From contig JAWXBZ010000026.1 in the NCBI GenBank assembly GCA_034440375.1, forward strand, positions 1 through 13,271: DNA of 13,271 nt, in the 5' to 3' direction. Of this stretch, positions 3,028 to 11,277 are shown piece by piece (positions within the stretch are counted from its first letter, which is position 1; the number at the start of each line of letters is the position of its first letter). The notes under the pieces were generated by a model. The model was given only the letters and a program-made list of their open reading frames with translations, was not told the DNA's origin and did not search any database. Made by a program: the position numbers and the translations under genes. This stretch comes from Candidatus Eiseniibacteriota bacterium. GTDB lineage: Bacteria > Eisenbacteria > RBG-16-71-46 > JABDJR01 > JAWXBZ01.

Positions 3028-3036
3028 ATTGTACCA
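3028..3036 (-). promoter_or_regulatory. Putative extended -10 promoter (TGgTACAAT) for the GT4-flippase-GT4 operon
   Basis: The minus strand reads TGGTACAAT 28 nt upstream of the ATG at 2999, in an AT-richer divergent intergenic region. Confidence 0.55.
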
Positions 3037-3096
3037 GAAAGACTTAAGCCGGACGATATTCCGACTTTGCCGGTGGGCGGTCAACGCGGAACGGGC

Positions 3097-3102
3097 TACC
3101 AT
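3097..3102 (+). promoter_or_regulatory. Possible -10 box (TACCAT) 7 nt before ATG 3110; leaderless-type arrangement
   Basis: ggcTACCATgggcggcATG; no SD before either in-frame ATG (3101, 3110). Confidence 0.4.
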
Positions 3103-3109
3103 GGGCGGC

Positions 3110-4237
3110 ATGCGAGTGGCATTTGTGGCCTCGACACTGGCAATGGGCGGGGCGGAGCGGATCACGGGCGAGGCATCGGAGCGGCTGGTCGCCCGGGGCC
3201 ACGAGGTCGTCTGGCTGCTCCTTCGTGAACCGGGTCTCGAGGGGGAGCGGCTCCTTAAGCGGGGCATGGTCATCGAATCGGGCCTCGGCCATCGACGATT
3301 CGATCCGTTCACGCCGGGGCGCCTGGCCGCGCGCCTAGAGGCCCACGGTGTCGAGGCGGTCTGGTGTCTTGATCATCAGAATGCGGTGGTCAATCTGGCG
3401 TTGGCGTCGCGCCGGTCGCCGATCATGGAGCGCCTTTTCCTTGCCGTCCACACCACCGGACTCTGGGGTGGCGGGTCGAGTGTTCCGCGTGGTGTGCGGG
3501 CGGTGTTGCCAATTTTCACAAATGTGATCGCGGTGGCCGAGGCGCAACGGCGGTATCTGGTTGATGGGCTTGGCATGTTGGAGGGGCAGGTGGTGGTGGT
3601 TCGGAATGGGATTGATGTTTCCCGATTCTCGGCGACGCTGGAACGAACCACCCGGGCCGTGGAATTCCGTCGATCCTGGGCCGGCGCCTCGACGGGCCCG
3701 ATAGTGGGAGTCATCGCGGCGCTTCGTCCGGAGAAGGGGCACATCGATCTGATCGACGTCCTCGCAACAAACGCCGATCGGCTCGGGTCGGTTCATCTCG
3801 TTCTCGTTGGTGACGGCCCGATGCGCAAGGCGATCGAAAAGCGGGCGGCGGGACGAAACGTCCGCGTCCATTTCCTCGGGGCCCGCTCGGACGTGGCCGA
3901 TCTGTTGCCGGCGTTCGATCTGGTTGTGCTCCCGTCGCGCCCCGTCGTCGAAACGTTGCCCCTGTCGGTCATGGAGGCGATGGCGGCGGGTCGGCCGGTT
4001 GTGGCCACCCGGGTCGGGGCGCTCGATGAGCTGATTGAGGACGGCGTGAGCGGCTGGCTGGTGCCGCCCTTGGACCCGGCCGCCCTGGCCGATCGCCTGG
4101 TTGCCTGCTTCGGCGATCCGGGTGGAATGACCCGGATTGGCCGGAACGCCGCGGAACGTGCCCGGTCCTTCGACATCGAAACCACCGTGGATGCGATGGC
4201 CCGACTTCTCACAGGCCCTCGTCAAGGATTGCTATAA
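3110..4237 (+). CDS. Glycosyltransferase family 4 (GT-B)
   Basis: MRVAFVASTLAMGGAER...LVARGHEV; VRNGID; ALRPEKGH; FLGARSDVADLL; ETLPLSVMEAMAAGRPVVAT. Start placed at ATG 3110 (GT4-like N-terminus) rather than the track's TTG 3029; ATG 3101 is also possible. Confidence 0.92.
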   Translation: MRVAFVASTLAMGGAERITGEASERLVARGHEVVWLLLREPGLEGERLLKRGMVIESGLGHRRFDPFTPGRLAARLEAHGVEAVWCLDHQNAVVNLALASRRSPIMERLFLAVHTTGLWGGGSSVPRGVRAVLPIFTNVIAVAEAQRRYLVDGLGMLEGQVVVVRNGIDVSRFSATLERTTRAVEFRRSWAGASTGPIVGVIAALRPEKGHIDLIDVLATNADRLGSVHLVLVGDGPMRKAIEKRAAGRNVRVHFLGARSDVADLLPAFDLVVLPSRPVVETLPLSVMEAMAAGRPVVATRVGALDELIEDGVSGWLVPPLDPAALADRLVACFGDPGGMTRIGRNAAERARSFDIETTVDAMARLLTGPRQGLL

Positions 4238-4275: not shown

Positions 4276-7200
4276 ATGATCCAGCCCTCGACCACGCACC
4301 GGATGATCCTGGCGCACCATCCCCGCTTTGGCCAGCTTTACGTGCCGGGGATCAACGCCCGCGTCCCGGGCCCGGCGGGGCCGTACTTCCTTTCGACCAA
4401 CGGCCAGGGTTTCCGCTCGGACTGGGAGTTCCGCCGCGAAAAGAGCGGCAAGCCCCGTATCCTGGTCTTCGGCGATTCGTATACCGCGGGGGATGGCGTT
4501 ACGAATCAAGCTCGTTTCGCCGAGAAACTGGGCGAAACCTACGGCGCTGAAGTTTTCAACTTCGGTGTCGCCGGCACCGGCACCGACCAGCACCTGATGA
4601 TTTTCGAGGAAGTGGCCAAAAGCGTCCCCGCCGACCTGATCATCCTTGCCGTGGCCGTCCACAACATCGATCGGATCAAGGTCGGCTACCGAGAATATAT
4701 CGAACGGACGACCGGCGAGCGGGTCCTCGGGGCAAAACCCTTCTTCGAGCTGGCGAATGGACAGCTCGAACTGCGCGGCGTGCCCGTCCCCATCGAGCGC
4801 CCGCGGGCGGCCGATGCCAGGAAGGGCACCTACGAAGAACCGGTCCTCCACGACAATGACGGCGGCTTCAGCCTCATCAACAAGGTCCGCGACGGCCTGC
4901 GGCTCCGCCAGTTCGAGTCGACGATCGAGAAACACGCACCCGATCTCAAGCCGTCGATTCGGGCTAAACTCCTCAGGGCCAGGAATTTCCAGCCGCACGA
5001 GGACTACCGCTCGGCCAACACGCCCGGGTGGCAACTCATGCAGGCGATCCTGGCGCGCTTCGTCGCCGGCTCCCGGCCGACGCCGCTCCTCATTGTGCCG
5101 ATCCCCACCTGGTACTTTTACTATGACGAAGTGCCGCCGATCTACCAGCCGCTCTTCGAATCGCTGGAAGACCGATCGAAGGAAGTCCACGTCATGGACT
5201 TGACGACACCGCTCGTCAGCCTGCCGCGCGCCGAGCGCCGCCGGATCCCGCTTGGAACCGACACACATTTTTCGCCGGAAGGGCATGCCCGAATCGCCGA
5301 CCTGATCGCCGCCGAGATCGACAAACGGGGGATCCTGCCCGGTCGACGCGAAGCCATGGCTTTGAGCGTCGTCGGACGCCGCGCAAGGTCAGCCGAACCG
5401 CCGCCCGGCGCCGGCAGTGACAAGCCGCGCTACATCCTGGGACTCTCCTGTTTCTACCACAATTCCGGTGCGGCGCTGCTCCGGGACGGCCAGATCGTGG
5501 CCGCCGCCGAGGAGGAGCGTTTCAGCCGCATCAAGAACGACCCGCGCTTCCCGGTGTCGGCCGTCAATTTCTGCCTCGAAGAAGGAAACATCCAGCCGAA
5601 CGACCTCGCGGCGGTCGTCTACTACGACAACCCCGCGCTGACCTTCGAGCGGATCTTTCACACCCTCCTGTCGCTGGGCGAAAAGGGGGAAGAGGCCTGG
5701 ATGCGCATCCTCCCGTTCTGGGTGGGGCAAAAGCTCCACATCCCCGAACTGGTTCGGGAAGCCCTCGGCTACGGGGGCCTCGTCCTGCAGGAGACGCATC
5801 ACCGAAGCCACGCCGCCAGCGCCTTCTATCCCTCCCCCTTCGCGCGAGCCGCCATCCTGACCATTGATGGCGTGGGGGAGTGGGCCACCGCCACCGTTGG
5901 CGTCGGCCGTGACGCCGACTTGACGCTTCTCCAGGAGATGCGCTTTCCGCACTCTCTTGGGCTTCTGTATTCCGCGTTCACCCAGTTCACCGGCTTCAAG
6001 GTGAATTCCGGCGAGTACAAGATGATGGGTTTGGCTCCCTACGGCGAACCGAAGTACGTCGATCGAATCCTCGAGAAGCTGGTCAGCCTCAAGGATGACG
6101 GCTCGATCGAGCTCAACATGGAGTATTTCGGCTTCCTGCACGAAGCCTCCATGACTTCGGACAAGATGGCTGAGCTCTTCGACGGCCCCCCCCGCGAAAT
6201 GGAAAGCCGCATCACCCGGCGTGAAATGGACATGGCCCGATCGGTCCAGGTCGTCACCGAAGAGGCCATGCTCCGCATGGCCCGCCACGCGAAGAAGCTC
6301 ACCGGTGAATCAAAGCTCTGCCTGGCGGGCGGCGTGGCGCTGAACTGCGTGGCCAACGGCCGTGTCCTGCGTGAAGGCCCGTTCGACGATCTGTGGATCC
6401 AGCCGGCGGCGGGCGATTCCGGCGGTGCTCTCGGCGCCGCCTACGACGTGCATCACAACTGGTTCAAGCAACCGCGCGTCAGGACGACCGACGGACGCGC
6501 GGCCATGAAGGCCTCCTGGTGGGGTCCGGGCTACTCCAACAACGAAATTGATGCCTTCCTGAAAACGTACGGCTGCCCGGCCATCAAGCTGGCGCCTGAG
6601 GACCGTGCTGGCCGCATTGCCGACCTGCTTGCCGAAGGCAAGATCATCGGTCACTTCGCCGGCCGCACCGAGTTCGGCCCCCGGGCGCTGGGAGCCCGTT
6701 CCATCATCGGCGATCCCCGCAATCCCGACATGCAGGCCAGGCTGAATCTCAAGATCAAGTTCCGCGAGTCGTTCCGCCCCTTTGCGCCGGCCGTCCTGGC
6801 AGAACGGATCGGCGACTACTTCGAGCTCGATCGCGAAAGCCCCTATATGCTTCTAGTGGCCCCTGTCCGCAAGGAACGCCGCCTGGTCCCCGAAAAGGTG
6901 GAAGGGGAGGACATGCTCGTCACCGTGAAGCAGCTCCGCAGCGACATCCCCGCCATTACCCACATCGACTACTCCGCCCGCGTCCAATCCGCAACCCGGG
7001 AAGACACTGGCCCCTACTACGACCTCATCAAAGCGTTCGAAACCAAAACCGGTTGCGCCGTCATCGTCAACACCTCGTTCAACGTCCGAGGCGAACCGAT
7101 CGTGAACACGCCAGCCGAGGCCTACCGCTGCTTCATGAAGACACACATGGATGCGCTGGTCCTGGGCGACTATCTCCTCCTGAAAGAAGAGCAGCCGGCG

Positions 7201-7614
7201 TCGTCGGCGCTGCCGGAGCCGGTATCGAAGGAAGCTCCCGCGCGCGAACTTGATCCCGCGACATCCGAGGAACTCCGCAAGATATACCGCGAAGAGTTTC
7301 TGCCGCTGGCGAAGCGGCTGGCCGGAAACGGCGTGGAAGTGTCCGAAAAGCCAACCGGCAAATCCAGCCTCTGGCGGGAACTCAACGAGTCCGCCGATCC
7401 CAGGGTCATCTTTCAGATTCCCGAGAGCCTGTCCGACCCGGCGGCGCCTCCCGCCGAGGCCGCCCGCGCCATCCTCGGCTATTGGTCCGAAGGCCCAGTC
7501 AAATCCGCCGCCGAACCGGTGCTGACGCGATTGCTGACGTTGAGCCGGAAGCTGCCGCTGGCGATCGACCAGGGGCACGCCACGGTTCATGACACGATTT
7601 ATGTAATGTACTAG
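4276..7614 (+). CDS. Fusion: N-terminal SGNH/GDSL hydrolase-like domain + NodU/CmcH/TobZ-family O-carbamoyltransferase + C-terminal extension
   Basis: 1112-aa uninterrupted ORF. SGNH blocks: FGDSY (Ser68), NFGVAGTG, HNID, TDTHFS (Asp329/His331). Carbamoyltransferase from about residue 386: EEERFSRIK, HHRSHAASAF, IDGVGE, GEYKMMGLAPYG, AGGVALNC, PAAGDSG, EFGPRALGARS, KIKFRESFRPFAP, THIDYSARVQ, NTSFNVRGEPIV. Confidence 0.93.
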   Translation: MIQPSTTHRMILAHHPRFGQLYVPGINARVPGPAGPYFLSTNGQGFRSDWEFRREKSGKPRILVFGDSYTAGDGVTNQARFAEKLGETYGAEVFNFGVAGTGTDQHLMIFEEVAKSVPADLIILAVAVHNIDRIKVGYREYIERTTGERVLGAKPFFELANGQLELRGVPVPIERPRAADARKGTYEEPVLHDNDGGFSLINKVRDGLRLRQFESTIEKHAPDLKPSIRAKLLRARNFQPHEDYRSANTPGWQLMQAILARFVAGSRPTPLLIVPIPTWYFYYDEVPPIYQPLFESLEDRSKEVHVMDLTTPLVSLPRAERRRIPLGTDTHFSPEGHARIADLIAAEIDKRGILPGRREAMALSVVGRRARSAEPPPGAGSDKPRYILGLSCFYHNSGAALLRDGQIVAAAEEERFSRIKNDPRFPVSAVNFCLEEGNIQPNDLAAVVYYDNPALTFERIFHTLLSLGEKGEEAWMRILPFWVGQKLHIPELVREALGYGGLVLQETHHRSHAASAFYPSPFARAAILTIDGVGEWATATVGVGRDADLTLLQEMRFPHSLGLLYSAFTQFTGFKVNSGEYKMMGLAPYGEPKYVDRILEKLVSLKDDGSIELNMEYFGFLHEASMTSDKMAELFDGPPREMESRITRREMDMARSVQVVTEEAMLRMARHAKKLTGESKLCLAGGVALNCVANGRVLREGPFDDLWIQPAAGDSGGALGAAYDVHHNWFKQPRVRTTDGRAAMKASWWGPGYSNNEIDAFLKTYGCPAIKLAPEDRAGRIADLLAEGKIIGHFAGRTEFGPRALGARSIIGDPRNPDMQARLNLKIKFRESFRPFAPAVLAERIGDYFELDRESPYMLLVAPVRKERRLVPEKVEGEDMLVTVKQLRSDIPAITHIDYSARVQSATREDTGPYYDLIKAFETKTGCAVIVNTSFNVRGEPIVNTPAEAYRCFMKTHMDALVLGDYLLLKEEQPASSALPEPVSKEAPARELDPATSEELRKIYREEFLPLAKRLAGNGVEVSEKPTGKSSLWRELNESADPRVIFQIPESLSDPAAPPAEAARAILGYWSEGPVKSAAEPVLTRLLTLSRKLPLAIDQGHATVHDTIYVMY

Positions 7615-8267
7615 CATGACATGCCCCTGACACTTCACTTCCTGCGCCACGGACAGACGCCCTTCAGTCGCGAGAATGTCTTCTGTGGATCCGGGCTGGA
7701 CCCGGACTTGACCGATGACGGTCTGGAGATGGCGAAAGGCTTTGCCGCGGTGTATCGCGTCACGCCCTGGAACGCCGTCTATGCCAGCCCGCTCCAGCGA
7801 GCGGTAGCGACCGCGCAGCCACTGTGTCGGGCGATTCCGATGAAAATGGAATTGCGTGATGACCTGAAAGAGATCAGCTACGGCAAGTGGGAGGGGATGT
7901 CGGCGGAGGCGGTGAACCGGGAATATCACGATGACTACATCCGGTGGTCAACCGATCCAGCCTGGAATGCGCCGACGGAGGGAGAGCCGGCCATCATGAT
8001 CGCGCGGCGGGGCCTGCGAGTGATCGAGGAGATTACCCAGGCACATCGAACCGGCAATGTCCTGATCGTCTCGCACAAGGCCACGATCAGAATCCTGTTG
8101 TGCAGCCTTCTGGGAATCGACCTGGGGCGCTTCCGATCCCGCCTGGCCTGTCCGGTAAGCTCCATCAGTTTGATTGAGCTTGGCAGCCAGGGGCCCCAGC
8201 TGAAGGTACTGGCGGATCGAGCCCACCTGAACGAGCGGCTGAGGCAATTGCCCGGGACATGACATGC
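7615..8267. repeat. 10-bp direct repeat CATGACATGC at 7615-7624 and 8258-8267, bracketing the phosphatase gene
   Basis: Exact match read directly from the sequence. The left copy contains the ATG (7621) and the right copy contains the TGA (8260-8262). Confidence 0.75.
7621..8262 (+). CDS. Histidine phosphatase superfamily protein (phosphoglycerate mutase-like, branch 1)
   Basis: 213 aa; LRHGQT (RHG), YASPLQRA, LKEISYGKWEG, LIVSHKATIR. Confidence 0.93.
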   Translation: MPLTLHFLRHGQTPFSRENVFCGSGLDPDLTDDGLEMAKGFAAVYRVTPWNAVYASPLQRAVATAQPLCRAIPMKMELRDDLKEISYGKWEGMSAEAVNREYHDDYIRWSTDPAWNAPTEGEPAIMIARRGLRVIEEITQAHRTGNVLIVSHKATIRILLCSLLGIDLGRFRSRLACPVSSISLIELGSQGPQLKVLADRAHLNERLRQLPGT

Positions 8268-9027: not shown

Positions 9028-11277
9028 TCAGCGGCCGCCCGTCGTGCGTTTTAAACCTTCACGGGCCGTCCCCACTCTCTCATCACCGGCGGGGAGAATG
9101 GCCAGGACACGCTCGTACTGGAAGCGGGCGCTGTCGGCAATTCCCCGGGCCTCGTAAATGCGTCCAAGTTCCAGCCGGATCACGGACTCGTAGTCCGGTG
9201 TTTCCGCGAGCGCCGGGGAGCGCCCGGCCTCGAAAAGCACGCTCCGAGCCGCCGCGGAATCGCCGTTCTCGTTTAGAAACGTCGCGTACTCGTACGCGAC
9301 CTCAGGATTATGATCCGTCACATCCATGCCGGTTTCCAGGCATCGAAGGGCCTCTTCGACGTGACCGAGTTTCTGGTGAGCCCTGGACGCCAGCACATAG
9401 GTCCAGCTCCAACCCCAGCGTTCCTTCACGAGCGGTTCCAGAACTTCAATGCACGATTCAAACCGGCCGGCCGTGAAATATCCGCGGCCGAGCAGATAGG
9501 TGAAAAACCGGTTTTCGGGGTAGATCGTGCGGGCGGAAGAAGCCACCTGGATCACCCGCTCCGGCTCCATGGATACGACGGCGTCGATCACATCGATCTG
9601 CAGAGCGTCGCGCGGGGACGCTTGACCGCGCTGTGCTTTCAGCGTCGACAGGTTCTCCTGCACCCGGACTTCGTCGCCGAGATTCCAGTAGCCTCCCACG
9701 AGATCCACGCGGGCCGCGACGAACTGGCTGTCGAGCCCCACCGACTGCCCGGCGTAATTCACGGCCTCCCGCCAGCGGGAGGCAATGAAGGCCTCGTGCG
9801 CGCGCAGGTAGAGCCGGTAGGCGTCCGACGACGTCGTCGTGATGTCGCGCAGCCACTGGTCTTCGGCCCCCGCCCGGACCAGGTCGATTTCCAGCCAGGT
9901 CTGCAGCTTCGGAATGAGGCCGCCCGCGAGAAGGAAAAGATCGTCGGACGCCGGCCCCGAGAGCGCGTCGGCGTGAAGTATCCGGCCCCCTTCAACGTCC
10001 ACCACCCGGCACTGGATGCTGATGTCGCCGCCGGAGCGGAGAATGCTTCCGACGATGGCCCGGCCGATGCCGCGAGCCTTGAGACGTTCGAACATCGACG
10101 ACTGGAGATCGGCCGAGAGCTCCGTTTTCTCCAGGAGATTCGCCAGTCGCTGCGGATCGTAGACGTCGAGGTCCCGGGATCGAGCCAGAGCTGTTCCGAG
10201 AAGCTCCGGTAGCCCGCGGCCGATCCAGTCGAAGGAAGCGTCGCCGGTGAGATTATCGAACTCGAGCATCGCGATCGCCCGGGGACGGGCCGACTTTTCG
10301 AAAGACGGCCGGGTGGCGGGATGCCGGCGCACGGCGACGGCGAAGATCGCCAACGCGATCACCGGGAGCAGGGTGTACACCCACGGGTGGACATGTCGCG
10401 GCCGGGCTCGCCCTGACGCCGGAACTGATCCGCCGATGTTCTTCAGCGCATCGAGAATCTCGCGGGCAGAGGCGAAGCGCGCGGCCGGTTCCTTTTCGAG
10501 GCATCGCTTCACGATGGCCTCCAGCGTGGTCGGCACACCCCGTGCGGAGTCTGAGATCGGCGGGGGATCATCTTTGAGAATCGCCGCGGCGACCTCCGCC
10601 CAGGTGTTTCCGGGAAAGGCTCGCCGTCCGGTCAGGAGCTCATGGAGAATCAGCCCGAAGCTGAAGAAATCGGCGCGTTGATCGACGGGTCGGCCCAGGT
10701 GCTGCTCCGGAGACATGTAGCCCATGGTTCCCATGACGGTGCCGGGCGTCGTGACACTCGTGATCGTGGAGCTCAACTCGTCCGGTGATCCGGACGGAAT
10801 CGTGAACCGGGCCAGGCCGAAATCCAGAATCTTGACGCGCCCGTCCGGCGTGACCATCACATTTTCCGGCTTCAGGTCGCGGTGAACAATCCCGCGATCG
10901 TGCATCGCGGTCAGTCCCGAGGCCATCTGCCGCGCGATATCGATCACCTCAGGCGACGGAAGGGGCCCGGCGGCGAGTCTCTCCCGAAGCGTCGAGCCTT
11001 CGAGCAGCTCCGTCACGGCGTAGGTCGTTCCCTGCTCTGAGCCGACGTCGAACAAGGCCAGTATATTCGGATGCGCCAAGGCGGCGACGGCCATGGCTTC
11101 GCGACCGAATCGCGCCATCGCCTCCGGGTCCATCGTCGCCGCTTCGGGCAGGACCTTGATCGCCACCTCGCGCTGCAGCCGCGTGTCCCGCGCGCGATAG
11201 ACCTCCCCCATTCCTCCGGCCCCGAGGGGGGCGATGATTTCGTAGGGCCCGAGACGGTTCCCGGCGGAGAGCTGCAT
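9028..11277 (-). CDS. Hanks-type Ser/Thr protein kinase with a transmembrane helix, a TolB-N/FlgO-like domain and TPR repeats
   Basis: 749 aa; LGAGGMGEVY, VAIK, HRDLKPEN, KILDFGLAR, GTMGYMSPEQ. TM segment WVYTLLPVIALAIFAVAV, then AIAMLEFDNLTGD..DWIGRGLPELL, TTSSDAYRLYLRA and helical TPR-like repeats. Confidence 0.95.
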   Translation of the reverse strand: MQLSAGNRLGPYEIIAPLGAGGMGEVYRARDTRLQREVAIKVLPEAATMDPEAMARFGREAMAVAALAHPNILALFDVGSEQGTTYAVTELLEGSTLRERLAAGPLPSPEVIDIARQMASGLTAMHDRGIVHRDLKPENVMVTPDGRVKILDFGLARFTIPSGSPDELSSTITSVTTPGTVMGTMGYMSPEQHLGRPVDQRADFFSFGLILHELLTGRRAFPGNTWAEVAAAILKDDPPPISDSARGVPTTLEAIVKRCLEKEPAARFASAREILDALKNIGGSVPASGRARPRHVHPWVYTLLPVIALAIFAVAVRRHPATRPSFEKSARPRAIAMLEFDNLTGDASFDWIGRGLPELLGTALARSRDLDVYDPQRLANLLEKTELSADLQSSMFERLKARGIGRAIVGSILRSGGDISIQCRVVDVEGGRILHADALSGPASDDLFLLAGGLIPKLQTWLEIDLVRAGAEDQWLRDITTTSSDAYRLYLRAHEAFIASRWREAVNYAGQSVGLDSQFVAARVDLVGGYWNLGDEVRVQENLSTLKAQRGQASPRDALQIDVIDAVVSMEPERVIQVASSARTIYPENRFFTYLLGRGYFTAGRFESCIEVLEPLVKERWGWSWTYVLASRAHQKLGHVEEALRCLETGMDVTDHNPEVAYEYATFLNENGDSAAARSVLFEAGRSPALAETPDYESVIRLELGRIYEARGIADSARFQYERVLAILPAGDERVGTAREGLKRTTGGR

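Follow-up and report, generated by a model that had tools for sequence, protein, structure and literature searches.

The gene and its product

The window analysed here is a whole stretch of 13,271 nucleotides from contig JAWXBZ010000026.1 of a Candidatus Eiseniibacteriota bacterium, and the element in question is one open reading frame (ORF) of its forward strand, which encodes an SGNH domain, a carbamoyltransferase (CT), a helical domain and a short tail in a single protein of 1112 residues. The tail stops at a hexapeptide, T-I-Y-V-M-Y, and comparison with relatives ties an invariant C-terminal tyrosine motif, in three architectures, to one clade of CTs and to an SGNH partner. But what is such a tyrosine doing at the very end of a CT? 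The features of the gene are the following, with the source of each assignment in brackets (pLDDT is the predicted local distance difference test score):

4276-7614, forward: whole ORF, 1112 aa, SGNH, CT, helical domain and Tyr tail (Pfam, translation, AlphaFold2)
4276-5391, forward: SGNH/GDSL domain, residues 1-372, CgnD-like (Pfam, Foldseek, VIA)
4477-4479, 5260-5262 and 5266-5268, forward: putative SGNH triad, Ser68, Asp329 and His331 respectively (conservation)
5374-5415, forward: interdomain linker, residues 367-380 (AlphaFold2 pLDDT <50)
5434-6441, forward: CT N-terminal Kae1-like domain, residues 387-722 (Pfam PF02543, Carbam_trans_N, E 2.6e-84)
6619-7182, forward: CT C-terminal YrdC-like domain, residues 782-969 (Pfam PF16861, Carbam_trans_C, E 4.7e-69)
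7243-7560, forward: helical C-terminal domain of ~105 aa, ~residues 990-1095, with no Pfam family (pLDDT 88-97)
7561-7611, forward: flexible tail, residues 1096-1112 (low pLDDT, column counts)
7594-7614, forward: terminal hexapeptide T-I-Y-V-M-Y and TAG, with the Tyr1109 codon at 7600-7602 (translation)

The last codons, at 7594-7614, read ACG ATT TAT GTA ATG TAC TAG (T-I-Y-V-M-Y-stop), and the translated ORF has the C-terminus ...DQGHATVHDTIYVMY*, its TAG stop lying at 7612-7614. The last six residues are Thr1107, Ile1108, Tyr1109, Val1110, Met1111 and Tyr1112. Counting back from the C-terminus, the letters and their translation bear out what the first-pass annotation of this DNA had reported, namely Ile at -5, Tyr1109 at -4 and an aromatic residue at the end. 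Read-through into the next gene is ruled out by the TAG stop, which is followed 7 nt on by a separate ATG-started histidine phosphatase ORF.

Pfam gives four matches in the 1112-aa protein (Lipase_GDSL_2, ALGX, Carbam_trans_N and Carbam_trans_C) and no family for residues 970-1112, when the last 142 and the last 69 residues were searched at E up to 10. The AlphaFold2 model of the full protein, built from an alignment of 121 sequences, has a mean pLDDT of 87.6 and a predicted template modelling score of 0.91. Block means fall to 74, 57 and 59 over the last ~22 residues, against 88-97 for residues 990-1095, which makes the pre-tail stretch the least confident part of the C-terminal region and agrees with the flexible stretch that had been expected before the motif. 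There is no membrane segment: the best Kyte-Doolittle 19-residue window, 1.51, is a core strand of the SGNH domain. A membrane-anchor role for the hydrophobic tail was considered and is ruled out by the acidic run before the tail and by the lack of a transmembrane segment. Pfam finds no MBOAT domain in the protein or in the other ORFs of the window.

A tyrosine fixed at the end of the fused proteins

The ending is of a known kind. Passages of PMC12148441 describe a C-terminal FXYXXF motif in DltX and PatA whose Tyr carries the acyl group, in agreement with the FIYxxF-like acyl-shuttle motif to which the first reading had likened the hexapeptide. Do the relatives of the window protein keep it? 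The fused set comprises the 120 best full-length homologues (1080-1173 aa, 51-91% identical over the whole length) and the query itself, and all 121 proteins end in x-[VIML]-Y-[VAMI]-[MLV]-[FY]-stop at the exact C-terminus. The residues found in the 121 sequences are:

Position -6: S 85, T 16, A 9, F 6
Position -5: V 73, I 32, M 14, L 2
Position -4: Y 121
Position -3: V 114
Position -2: M 109, L 11
Position -1: F 82, Y 39 (aromatic in 121 of 121)

The invariant Tyr that had been predicted at -4, behind a variable linker, is present in every homologue. After residue 973 the alignment has no invariant columns other than W1033 and Y1109; F1046 and W1070 of the helical domain are at least 90% conserved. 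As position -1 swaps Phe and Tyr freely while -4 is never Phe, the alignment suggests that the hydroxyl of Tyr1109 itself is needed. The family tail is also acidic, with the consensus E-E-V-S-E-S-V-Y-V-M-F, a conserved E-x-V and acidic run before the motif, and a mean net charge of -4.0 for residues -18 to -7 over the 121 sequences.

How specific is this ending? In 80 related loci the strict motif terminates 68 of 4520 mechanical ORFs of at least 60 aa, and 67 of these 68 are either a CT fusion or the ORF directly behind a CT. A chance or lineage-specific ending devoid of function, for which the imperfect -6 residue would be the sole argument, is ruled out, with a probability close to nil, by its conservation in 121 of 121 proteins at 51-91% identity and by a background of one unlinked ORF in ~4450.

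When 1.84 billion representative proteins were searched by phmmer, the last 143 residues matched 38 of them, 76-426 aa long. Most of these start inside the C-terminal domain of the CT and look like cut gene calls, not free-standing forms; 35 of the 38 end in Y-x-x-[FY], and the other three lose the match at query residues 123-125. The ~1100-aa fusions are absent from this representative-library result, though abundant in the other protein collection.

The same tail as a separate soluble protein

Searching genome contigs with the window SGNH domain gave 80 loci, which fall into these arrangements:

Three-domain fusion: 15 loci, all with the tail
CT-tail fusion and separate SGNH gene: 2 loci, one of them in an archaeal metagenome-assembled genome
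SGNH gene, CT gene and small motif-ending ORF, separate and in this order: 51 loci
CT with no tail ORF found: 1 locus
No intact CT within the fetched stretch: 11 loci

A separate soluble tail protein of ~110 aa directly follows the CT in 51 of the 69 loci that have both SGNH and CT, and four of these 51 carry caveats (loci are denoted by L numbers): L152 is a frameshifted fusion, L138 lies on the same contig as L003, the L121 tail has His as its last residue and the ORF of L156 is atypical, with 57 aa. With a length of ~100-120 aa, the split tail proteins end in [DE]-V-S-P-F-[IV]-Y-[VAT]-M-[FY], that is, in the full published FXYXXF pattern with F or Y last. Tyr stands at -4 in 51 of 51 and Phe at -6 in 44 of 51. 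Their Kyte-Doolittle 19-residue windows reach at most 1.41, so they have no transmembrane segment and are predicted to be soluble. The helical domain of the window protein is homologous to their bodies, aligning with 34 split proteins (alignment A4), and in the 38-sequence alignment of fused and split tail bodies the Tyr is the sole invariant column. A hidden Markov model (HMM) built from fusion tails finds the split tail ORFs at E up to 1e-5.

Would the motif still appear if the search did not see it? The tail-protein body was made into an HMM from which the last 10 columns had been cut. Of its 60 distinct matches, 57 have Tyr at -4 (56 end in F or Y, one in H), and the remaining three are weak matches to SxtJ-like ORFs. 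The tail module ranges over many phyla, from Planctomycetota to an archaeon, and one carrier of the fusion, Minicystis rosea DSM 24000 (L105), is in culture. The 80 SGNH-linked loci contain no DUF5989-type ORF and likewise no SxtJ, as had been foreseen for loci carrying the fusion. The tail module therefore appears, by homology, both fused and as the third of three adjacent genes, and the Rosetta-stone argument runs both ways. The first-pass annotation had read the fusion of donor enzyme, Tyr tail and SGNH domain as such a Rosetta stone; this part stands and is extended by the three-gene form, while the carbamoyl relay chemistry that it attached to it has the status of an inference.

The free-standing tail proteins (L098-L161) share a conserved N-terminus, M-S-[SL]-T-[DE], with MNLTD and MSWTD as further forms. 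Often the tail ORF starts within the final codons of the CT gene, and the two genes may therefore be translationally coupled. Variant endings in His occur in L056:10602-11174 and L121:9544-9885 (..SLIYALH and ..FVYVMH), and the sole candidate in L156 is the short hydrophobic 57-aa ORF, which ends ~490 nt past the CT stop in ..SDLYILF. A complex prediction for the split SGNH and tail protein of L138 (alignments A5 and A4) scored 0.00 in two runs, with the partner fold uncertain, a score that weighs neither way on binding.

A membrane counterpart: SxtJ and DUF5989

A second set of 80 loci was gathered around the closest contig relatives of the window CT domain (53-61% identical), mostly stand-alone CTs of ~605 aa. 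In 49 of these 80 loci there is a small ORF made of a hydrophobic helix followed by ..APFIYT[LI]F. Pfam labels it DUF5989 (PF19451) and labels the gene between it and the CT SxtJ (PF19588). DUF5989 is a single-pass membrane protein of ~50 aa (Kyte-Doolittle value 2.52) and is accompanied by the polytopic SxtJ. An HMM from which the last 8 residues had been left out collected 50 distinct DUF5989-type ORFs, and all 50 end in F-[IVL]-Y-x-x-F. Pfam gives no PF19451 match in the window tail at E up to 10, and what the two have in common is the I-Y-x-x-aromatic ending. SGNH-like ORFs related to the window SGNH domain occur in 24 of 76 stand-alone-CT loci, many of them with an N-terminal hydrophobic anchor (Kyte-Doolittle values 2.26-2.36). 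Passages of PMC2679770 give a comparable gene order: sxtI (carbamoylation), sxtJ and sxtK (both listed as unknown) and sxtL (homologous to GDSL lipase).

The genome of the window has such a set too. It holds three CT genes in total, and its contig C31 (locus L002) carries an SGNH-like ORF, a 631-aa CT, an SxtJ-like ORF and a DUF5989 protein ending in ...TPLAPFIYTLF. The statement in the earlier reading that SxtK/DUF5989 proteins end in FIYTLF is correct for this protein and, in the looser form above, for all 50 collected. A search of the genome with PF19588 returned nothing at E up to 0.01, and the C31 ORF that follows the CT matches SxtJ at E 0.006, below the Pfam cut-off. Between the SxtJ and DUF5989 ORFs of C31 lies an opposite-strand ORF of 751 aa with FlgD-Ig and Por_Secre_tail-like C-terminal domains (L002:5062-7317, reverse), and the DUF5989 ORF overlaps with the beginning of the ORF for a TPR-repeat membrane protein of 612 aa (L002:7910-9748, forward).

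SxtJ-like ORFs, among them L062:9819-10235, L069:2762-3394, L074:9817-10230 and L002:4519-4989, have a conserved ending of their own, Y-x-x-Q-[FY] (RYFRQF, YDRQF, YENQY). They weakly match the HMM of the soluble tail body (E 3e-4 to 6e-4), a resemblance that may reflect a distant relationship or chance.

By comparison of sequences, the window gene is the fused end-member of a widespread module, as the same parts exist as three genes and as a membrane set of CT, SxtJ, DUF5989 and anchored SGNH protein.

The carbamoyltransferase and its phylogeny

The top Foldseek folds for the CT half are TobZ, GdmN, NovN and VtdB (E about 1e-40; TobZ 3ver at 2.8e-40; 30-34% identity), and it aligns end to end with GdmN (phmmer E 1.3e-85). 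A Kae1-like domain followed by a YrdC-like domain is the order that marks CTs of the NodU/CmcH/TobZ type; for the NodU equivalog NCBIfam NF041651 the score is 128 bits against a cut-off of 1000. In the N-terminal CT domain H395, H508, H509, H512, D531 and D714 are invariant in all 121 proteins, and in the C-terminal one K828, R830, S832, R834, H896, N932, T933, S934 and N936. Motifs of the presumed metal site and of nucleotide and carbamoyl-phosphate binding, namely H-H-x-x-H-A, D-G-x-G-E, P-A-x-x-D-x-G, K-x-R-E-x-F-R-P-F-A-P and N-T-S-F-N, are invariant in the 121 sequences and line up with those of GdmN. Both catalytic halves, CT and SGNH, look intact.

Does the kind of tail partner go with the kind of CT? 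A FastTree phylogeny of 154 CT domains was rooted solely on five divergent paralogues and is read without any claim on the direction of change. The fused CTs make up a single clade (18 members, support 98), and the split soluble-tail CTs another (53 members, support 99). The larger group in which the two are nested (supports 97 and 98) includes DUF5989-linked CTs as well; the other 65 rows of the tree are DUF5989-linked or come from loci where no DUF5989 was seen. Since fused and split CTs form separate supported clades among DUF5989-linked ones, relatedness among the CTs goes with the type of tail partner.

The stand-alone CTs of the clade (L003-L162; for example L138:9009-10847 and L002:2664-4559) end in a second conserved motif, ..W-[RK]-x-E-[FY]-x-L-D-stop, found in both the DUF5989-linked and the split soluble-tail types. 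Its equivalent in the fusion, at ~residues 979-991, is the linker to the helical domain, and this end could be a docking site for SxtJ or for the tail protein. Several split loci also contain a second, divergent CT paralogue of ~580 aa that has no tail motif and scores 420-500 with the HMM, against 870-950 for the main CT. These paralogues (L136:3794-5536, L138:11604-13346, L104:3299-5056, L123:4223-5959 and L143:13378-15147) are the outgroup of the tree.

The SGNH domain

The Lipase_GDSL_2 match covers residues 64-133 (E 4.1e-9), and ALGX matches residues 300-364 marginally (27.8 bits against a cut-off of 26.5). Among 36 fused and split sequences G66, D67, S68 and H331 are invariant, and G100, G102, N130 and D329 are at least 90% conserved; S68 and H331 are also invariant in the 121 fused sequences. 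The SGNH blocks are present as I (G66-D67-S68), II (G100/G102), III (N130) and V (D329-x-H331), block V reading D-x-H and not D-x-x-H. The serine proposed at first sight, Ser68, sits in G66-D67-S68, and the fusion has an SGNH partner with a Ser-His-Asp triad, as acyl-Tyr shuttles do.

The model of this domain has a pLDDT of 88.1, and its fold is matched by VIA at Z 13-22. The closest structure is CgnD (8a2n), with a Foldseek E of 2.3e-8 and, by VIA, Z 22.3 and a root-mean-square deviation of 4.0 over 240 aligned residues that include the N-terminal extension and inserts; the next match has Z 16.9. At the level of sequence the identity is 16-19%, and a search of Protein Data Bank sequences with the SGNH profile, at E up to 1, did not find CgnD; it gave weak generic GDSL matches only, AlgJ/AlgX at E 0.0045-0.012. 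Passages of PMC10070186 describe CgnD of the crocagin cluster as a slow enzyme that frees a modified core, formed from Ile-Tyr-Trp, from the C-terminal end of its precursor, and they place a carbamoyltransferase, CgnI, in the same cluster. The likeness, which comes from a structural model, is two-edged: it would fit an SGNH domain that holds the C-terminus of a peptide with Tyr in it, and it also leaves room for a reading as a peptide-processing enzyme.

Genomic context

The other annotated genes of the window, all by Pfam, are:

2-622, reverse: GT4 glycosyltransferase
589-1905, reverse: Wzx/MurJ-type flippase
1902-2999, reverse: GT4 glycosyltransferase
3029-4237, forward: GT4 glycosyltransferase
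7621-8262, forward: histidine phosphatase (His_Phos_1), its ATG 7 nt past the fusion stop
9028-11277, reverse: 749-aa Ser/Thr protein kinase with C-terminal TPR repeats

Pfam finds no CgnB-, CgnC- or CgnE-type genes in the window. The context of related genes was surveyed in 12 fused loci (96 of 104 listed ORFs scanned) and 25 split loci (84 of 159). Glycosyltransferase, Wzy or epimerase genes adjoin the fusion in 6 of the 12, and most of the 25 split loci have glycosyltransferase, epimerase or aminotransferase genes. These glycan genes around both kinds of locus favour, as far as gene content goes, the decoration of a glycan over the synthesis of a peptide natural product. In one of the 12 fused loci a 1227-aa carbamoyl-phosphate synthase large chain (L092:12690-16370, reverse) lies ~1.7 kb downstream of the fused gene and could be a dedicated supply of carbamoyl donor.

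In 9 of the 25 split loci a CE4 polysaccharide deacetylase (Polysacc_deac_1) directly follows the tail gene, giving the order SGNH, CT, tail, CE4, and the acceptor could be a de-N-acetylated amino sugar. The CE4 genes are:

L104:13652-14494
L108:11080-12048
L111:11283-12134
L112:11277-12056
L126:11228-12103
L135:11350-12201
L140:3748-4836
L144:11347-12447
L146:11273-12133

Relation to known systems

The DltX/DltB/DltD and PatA/PatB systems share with the window protein a hexapeptide that ends the chain, has Tyr at -4 after a hydrophobic residue (-5) and closes on an aromatic one, together with a partner that has an SGNH triad. In passages of PMC12148441 the motif stands by itself in DltX and is part of the donor enzyme in PatA, and PatB accepts acetyl from an O-acetyl-Tyr hexapeptide. 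The tail of the present family is likewise separate in the split loci and donor-fused in the window. The differences are equally clear. There the donor is an MBOAT protein, the group is acetyl or D-alanyl, and the motif sits on a membrane helix and acts outside the cytoplasm; here the donor is a soluble ATP-dependent CT and the group is, putatively, carbamoyl. The -6 residue is Phe there and Thr or Ser in the fused clade of the window, and where FXYXXF has Phe at -6 and -1 the window has Thr and Tyr. With its MBOAT donor, its membrane setting and its Phe at -6, that family is not one to which the window protein belongs, and by analogy it is slightly better than an even bet that the protein is an acyl-tyrosine-relay kind of system.

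Other systems resemble it in part. The SxtI/SxtJ/SxtK(DUF5989)/SxtL sets have a CT that is 53-61% identical, an SGNH/GDSL partner and similar endings (..APFIYTLF in DUF5989, ..VSPFIYVMF in split tails, ..TIYVMY in the window); they differ in that DUF5989 is a transmembrane microprotein accompanied by SxtJ, whereas the body of the window tail is a soluble helical domain. OatA (AT3-SGNH) combines donor and SGNH domain in one polypeptide, and in passages of PMC12148441 an invariant Tyr in the donor part takes the acyl group on behalf of the SGNH domain fused to it; this Tyr, however, is internal to a membrane AT3 domain and not in a tail, and the donor is acetyl-CoA. TobZ, GdmN, NovN and VtdB have the same two-domain fold and motifs, but are stand-alone enzymes of ~570-700 aa with small-molecule acceptors, and their entries describe no SGNH domain or Tyr tail. 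CgnD, with CgnI and CgnA, offers the best structural match to the SGNH domain and acts on a Tyr-containing peptide C-terminus with a CT in its cluster; it differs in being a hydrolase that releases the core of a peptide made on ribosomes and modified after translation (RiPP), and its crocagin-type neighbours (CgnB/CgnE-type binders and a 2-oxoglutarate dioxygenase) are not seen in the window.

Carbamoyl chemistry that ends at a protein C-terminus has a precedent in HypF and HypE. HypF has YrdC-like and Kae1-like domains, and the tail of HypE swings. According to PMC12130793, the carbamoyl of carbamoyl phosphate ends, via HypF, on the C-terminal Cys of the HypE PRIC motif. As in the window, a conserved motif at the very C-terminus is involved; the acceptor there is Cys, the product is dehydrated to thiocyanate and there is no hand-over to an SGNH enzyme. 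The PRIC motif is absent from the 1112-aa protein, which terminates in TIYVMY.

Literature linking DUF5989, SxtK or carbamoyltransferases to a tyrosine shuttle was not found in a search that left the original DltX paper and supplementary motif lists outside its scope, in keeping with the first-pass view that a relay with a CT had not been described. For carbamoyltransferases with SGNH proteins the literature searched likewise yielded, by title, no paper on this subject, and for SxtJ with carbamoyltransferase and polysaccharide it gave a study of toxin-profile genomics.

A proposed carbamoyl-tyrosine relay and its alternatives

How could the three parts work together? By analogy with DltX and PatA, the odds lean somewhat towards a cytoplasmic carbamoyl-tyrosine relay that is soluble, driven by a CT, free of MBOAT proteins and used to decorate a sugar polymer. 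The CT would make carbamoyl-AMP from carbamoyl phosphate and ATP, which is established for enzymes of the TobZ/GdmN type and is suggested here by the intact motifs. It would then load the carbamoyl group on the phenol of Tyr1109 in the flexible tail, rather than straight on a sugar. The tail would swing to the N-terminal SGNH domain, whose Ser68/Asp329/His331 triad would take the carbamoyl group and hand it to a hydroxyl or amine of a glycan built by the neighbouring glycosyltransferases. The helical domain would be the docking body that keeps the tail near both active sites.

Several observations weigh against this relay. The AlphaFold2 model gives no confident docked pose for the tail in either the Kae1-like or the SGNH site, and the pLDDT of the tail is 57-59. 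The solved CTs of the family (TobZ, GdmN, NovN and VtdB) act directly on small-molecule acceptors, so a relay is in principle unnecessary for a cytoplasmic enzyme. Carbamoyl-serine adducts of serine hydrolases are usually long-lived, and the second transfer would therefore be slow unless the SGNH domain is specialised. PatB (Z 13.3) and the C-terminal domain of OatA (Z 14.2) are no closer to this domain than generic esterases, and the nearest structure, CgnD, is a slow peptide hydrolase. The window tail itself, H-A-T-V-H-D-T-I-Y-V-M-Y, is without the acidic run of the family (HATVHD against EEEVSE). Its -6 residue is Thr, a position with S, T or A in 110 of the 121 fused proteins and F in 6, so that the match to FXYXXF is imperfect, as had been recognised from the start. 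No glycan genes lie nearby in 5 of the 12 fused loci, and the literature searched holds no O-carbamoyl-tyrosine enzyme intermediate.

Some of these points would suit a docking or regulatory peptide, in which the tail binds non-covalently (as a plug, in oligomerisation, in recruiting a partner or as a lid on an active site) and Tyr1109 serves binding and is not a carrier. The CT would then carbamoylate the sugar directly, as the titles of the TobZ, GdmN, NovN and VtdB entries indicate for solved relatives, and the SGNH domain would have a separate job such as removing an O-acetyl group to free the acceptor hydroxyl. The model, in which no catalytic site has the tail docked in it, agrees with this, as does the strongest conservation in the tail, which is that of hydrophobic residues and an acidic run; docking tails are often hydrophobic and acidic. 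The SGNH fold matches many plain carbohydrate esterases (Z 14-17), and the CE4 gene behind the tail gene in 9 of 25 split loci places deacylation chemistry in the operon. But why would a binding residue never change? None of 121 fused, 57 split and 50 DUF5989 sequences has Phe in place of Tyr at -4, while F and Y interchange freely at the last position; a pure packing role would tolerate Phe at -4 and is disfavoured by this. The motif is, moreover, always at the exact C-terminus and matches the published acyl-carrying hexapeptide F-I-Y-x-x-F, and the ending recurs on two unrelated scaffolds, one a transmembrane microprotein and the other a soluble helical domain, and in both has this CT clade and an SGNH protein as constant neighbours. 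Docking in place of carriage, with direct carbamoylation and a separate SGNH activity, is on this evidence rather unlikely. Less likely again is a RiPP-like maturation, in which the tail or tail protein is a precursor that the CT modifies and a CgnD-like SGNH domain cleaves to release a peptide, the fusion being a single-turnover, self-processing form. It draws on CgnD being by far the closest solved structure, on the cleavage by CgnD of a Tyr-containing, modified C-terminal tripeptide in a cluster with the CgnI CT (passages of PMC10070186), and on the small split tail gene, which lies directly behind its enzymes and shows its strongest conservation in the final residues. Yet a 1112-aa enzyme spent once per peptide would be costly, and the supposed core is near-identical from Planctomycetota to an archaeon, unlike the diversifying cores of RiPPs. 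Genes for GT4, GT2, Wzy, Wzx, epimerases and CE4 make up the neighbourhood, instead of dioxygenases, exporters and binders of the CgnB/CgnE type; the tail protein has a folded body (pLDDT 88-97), unlike a leader peptide; and the DUF5989 of the sister system is a microprotein of the membrane.

Of the comparative evidence, the soluble fusion and the soluble set of three genes support the carbamoyl-tyrosine relay most clearly. A wider reading, held tentatively and at somewhat less than even chances, is that a tyrosine relay brings carbamoyl groups to bacterial and archaeal surface glycans and to some natural products: one clade of TobZ-like CTs would load an F-I-Y-x-x-F-type tail and a CgnD-like SGNH protein would unload it, in three interchangeable builds, namely the soluble three-gene set, the ~1100-aa fusion and the membrane set. 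In the last of these, SxtJ and DUF5989 would replace the MBOAT protein and DltX and carry carbamoyl across the membrane to the anchored SGNH protein.

Implications

If the wider reading is true, SxtJ, SxtK and the adjoining GDSL protein would gain their first mechanistic role, and the CgnD/CgnI pair of crocagin biosynthesis might have descended from the same module. If the tail of the window protein carries carbamoyl, there would also be a function for the widespread families DUF5989 and SxtJ, for the unnamed ~110-aa tail-protein family and for the CgnD-like SGNH clade, and ATP-dependent carbamoyltransferases, thought to act directly on their acceptors, would use a relay too. The fused form, soluble and made of a single polypeptide, is the most convenient object for this question. 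Acyl-tyrosine shuttles have been established recently, and only for acetylation and D-alanylation, by MBOAT-dependent systems, of polymers of the envelope; with carbamoyl on the tail, such relays would be a device of general use, one that needs neither MBOAT proteins nor membranes.

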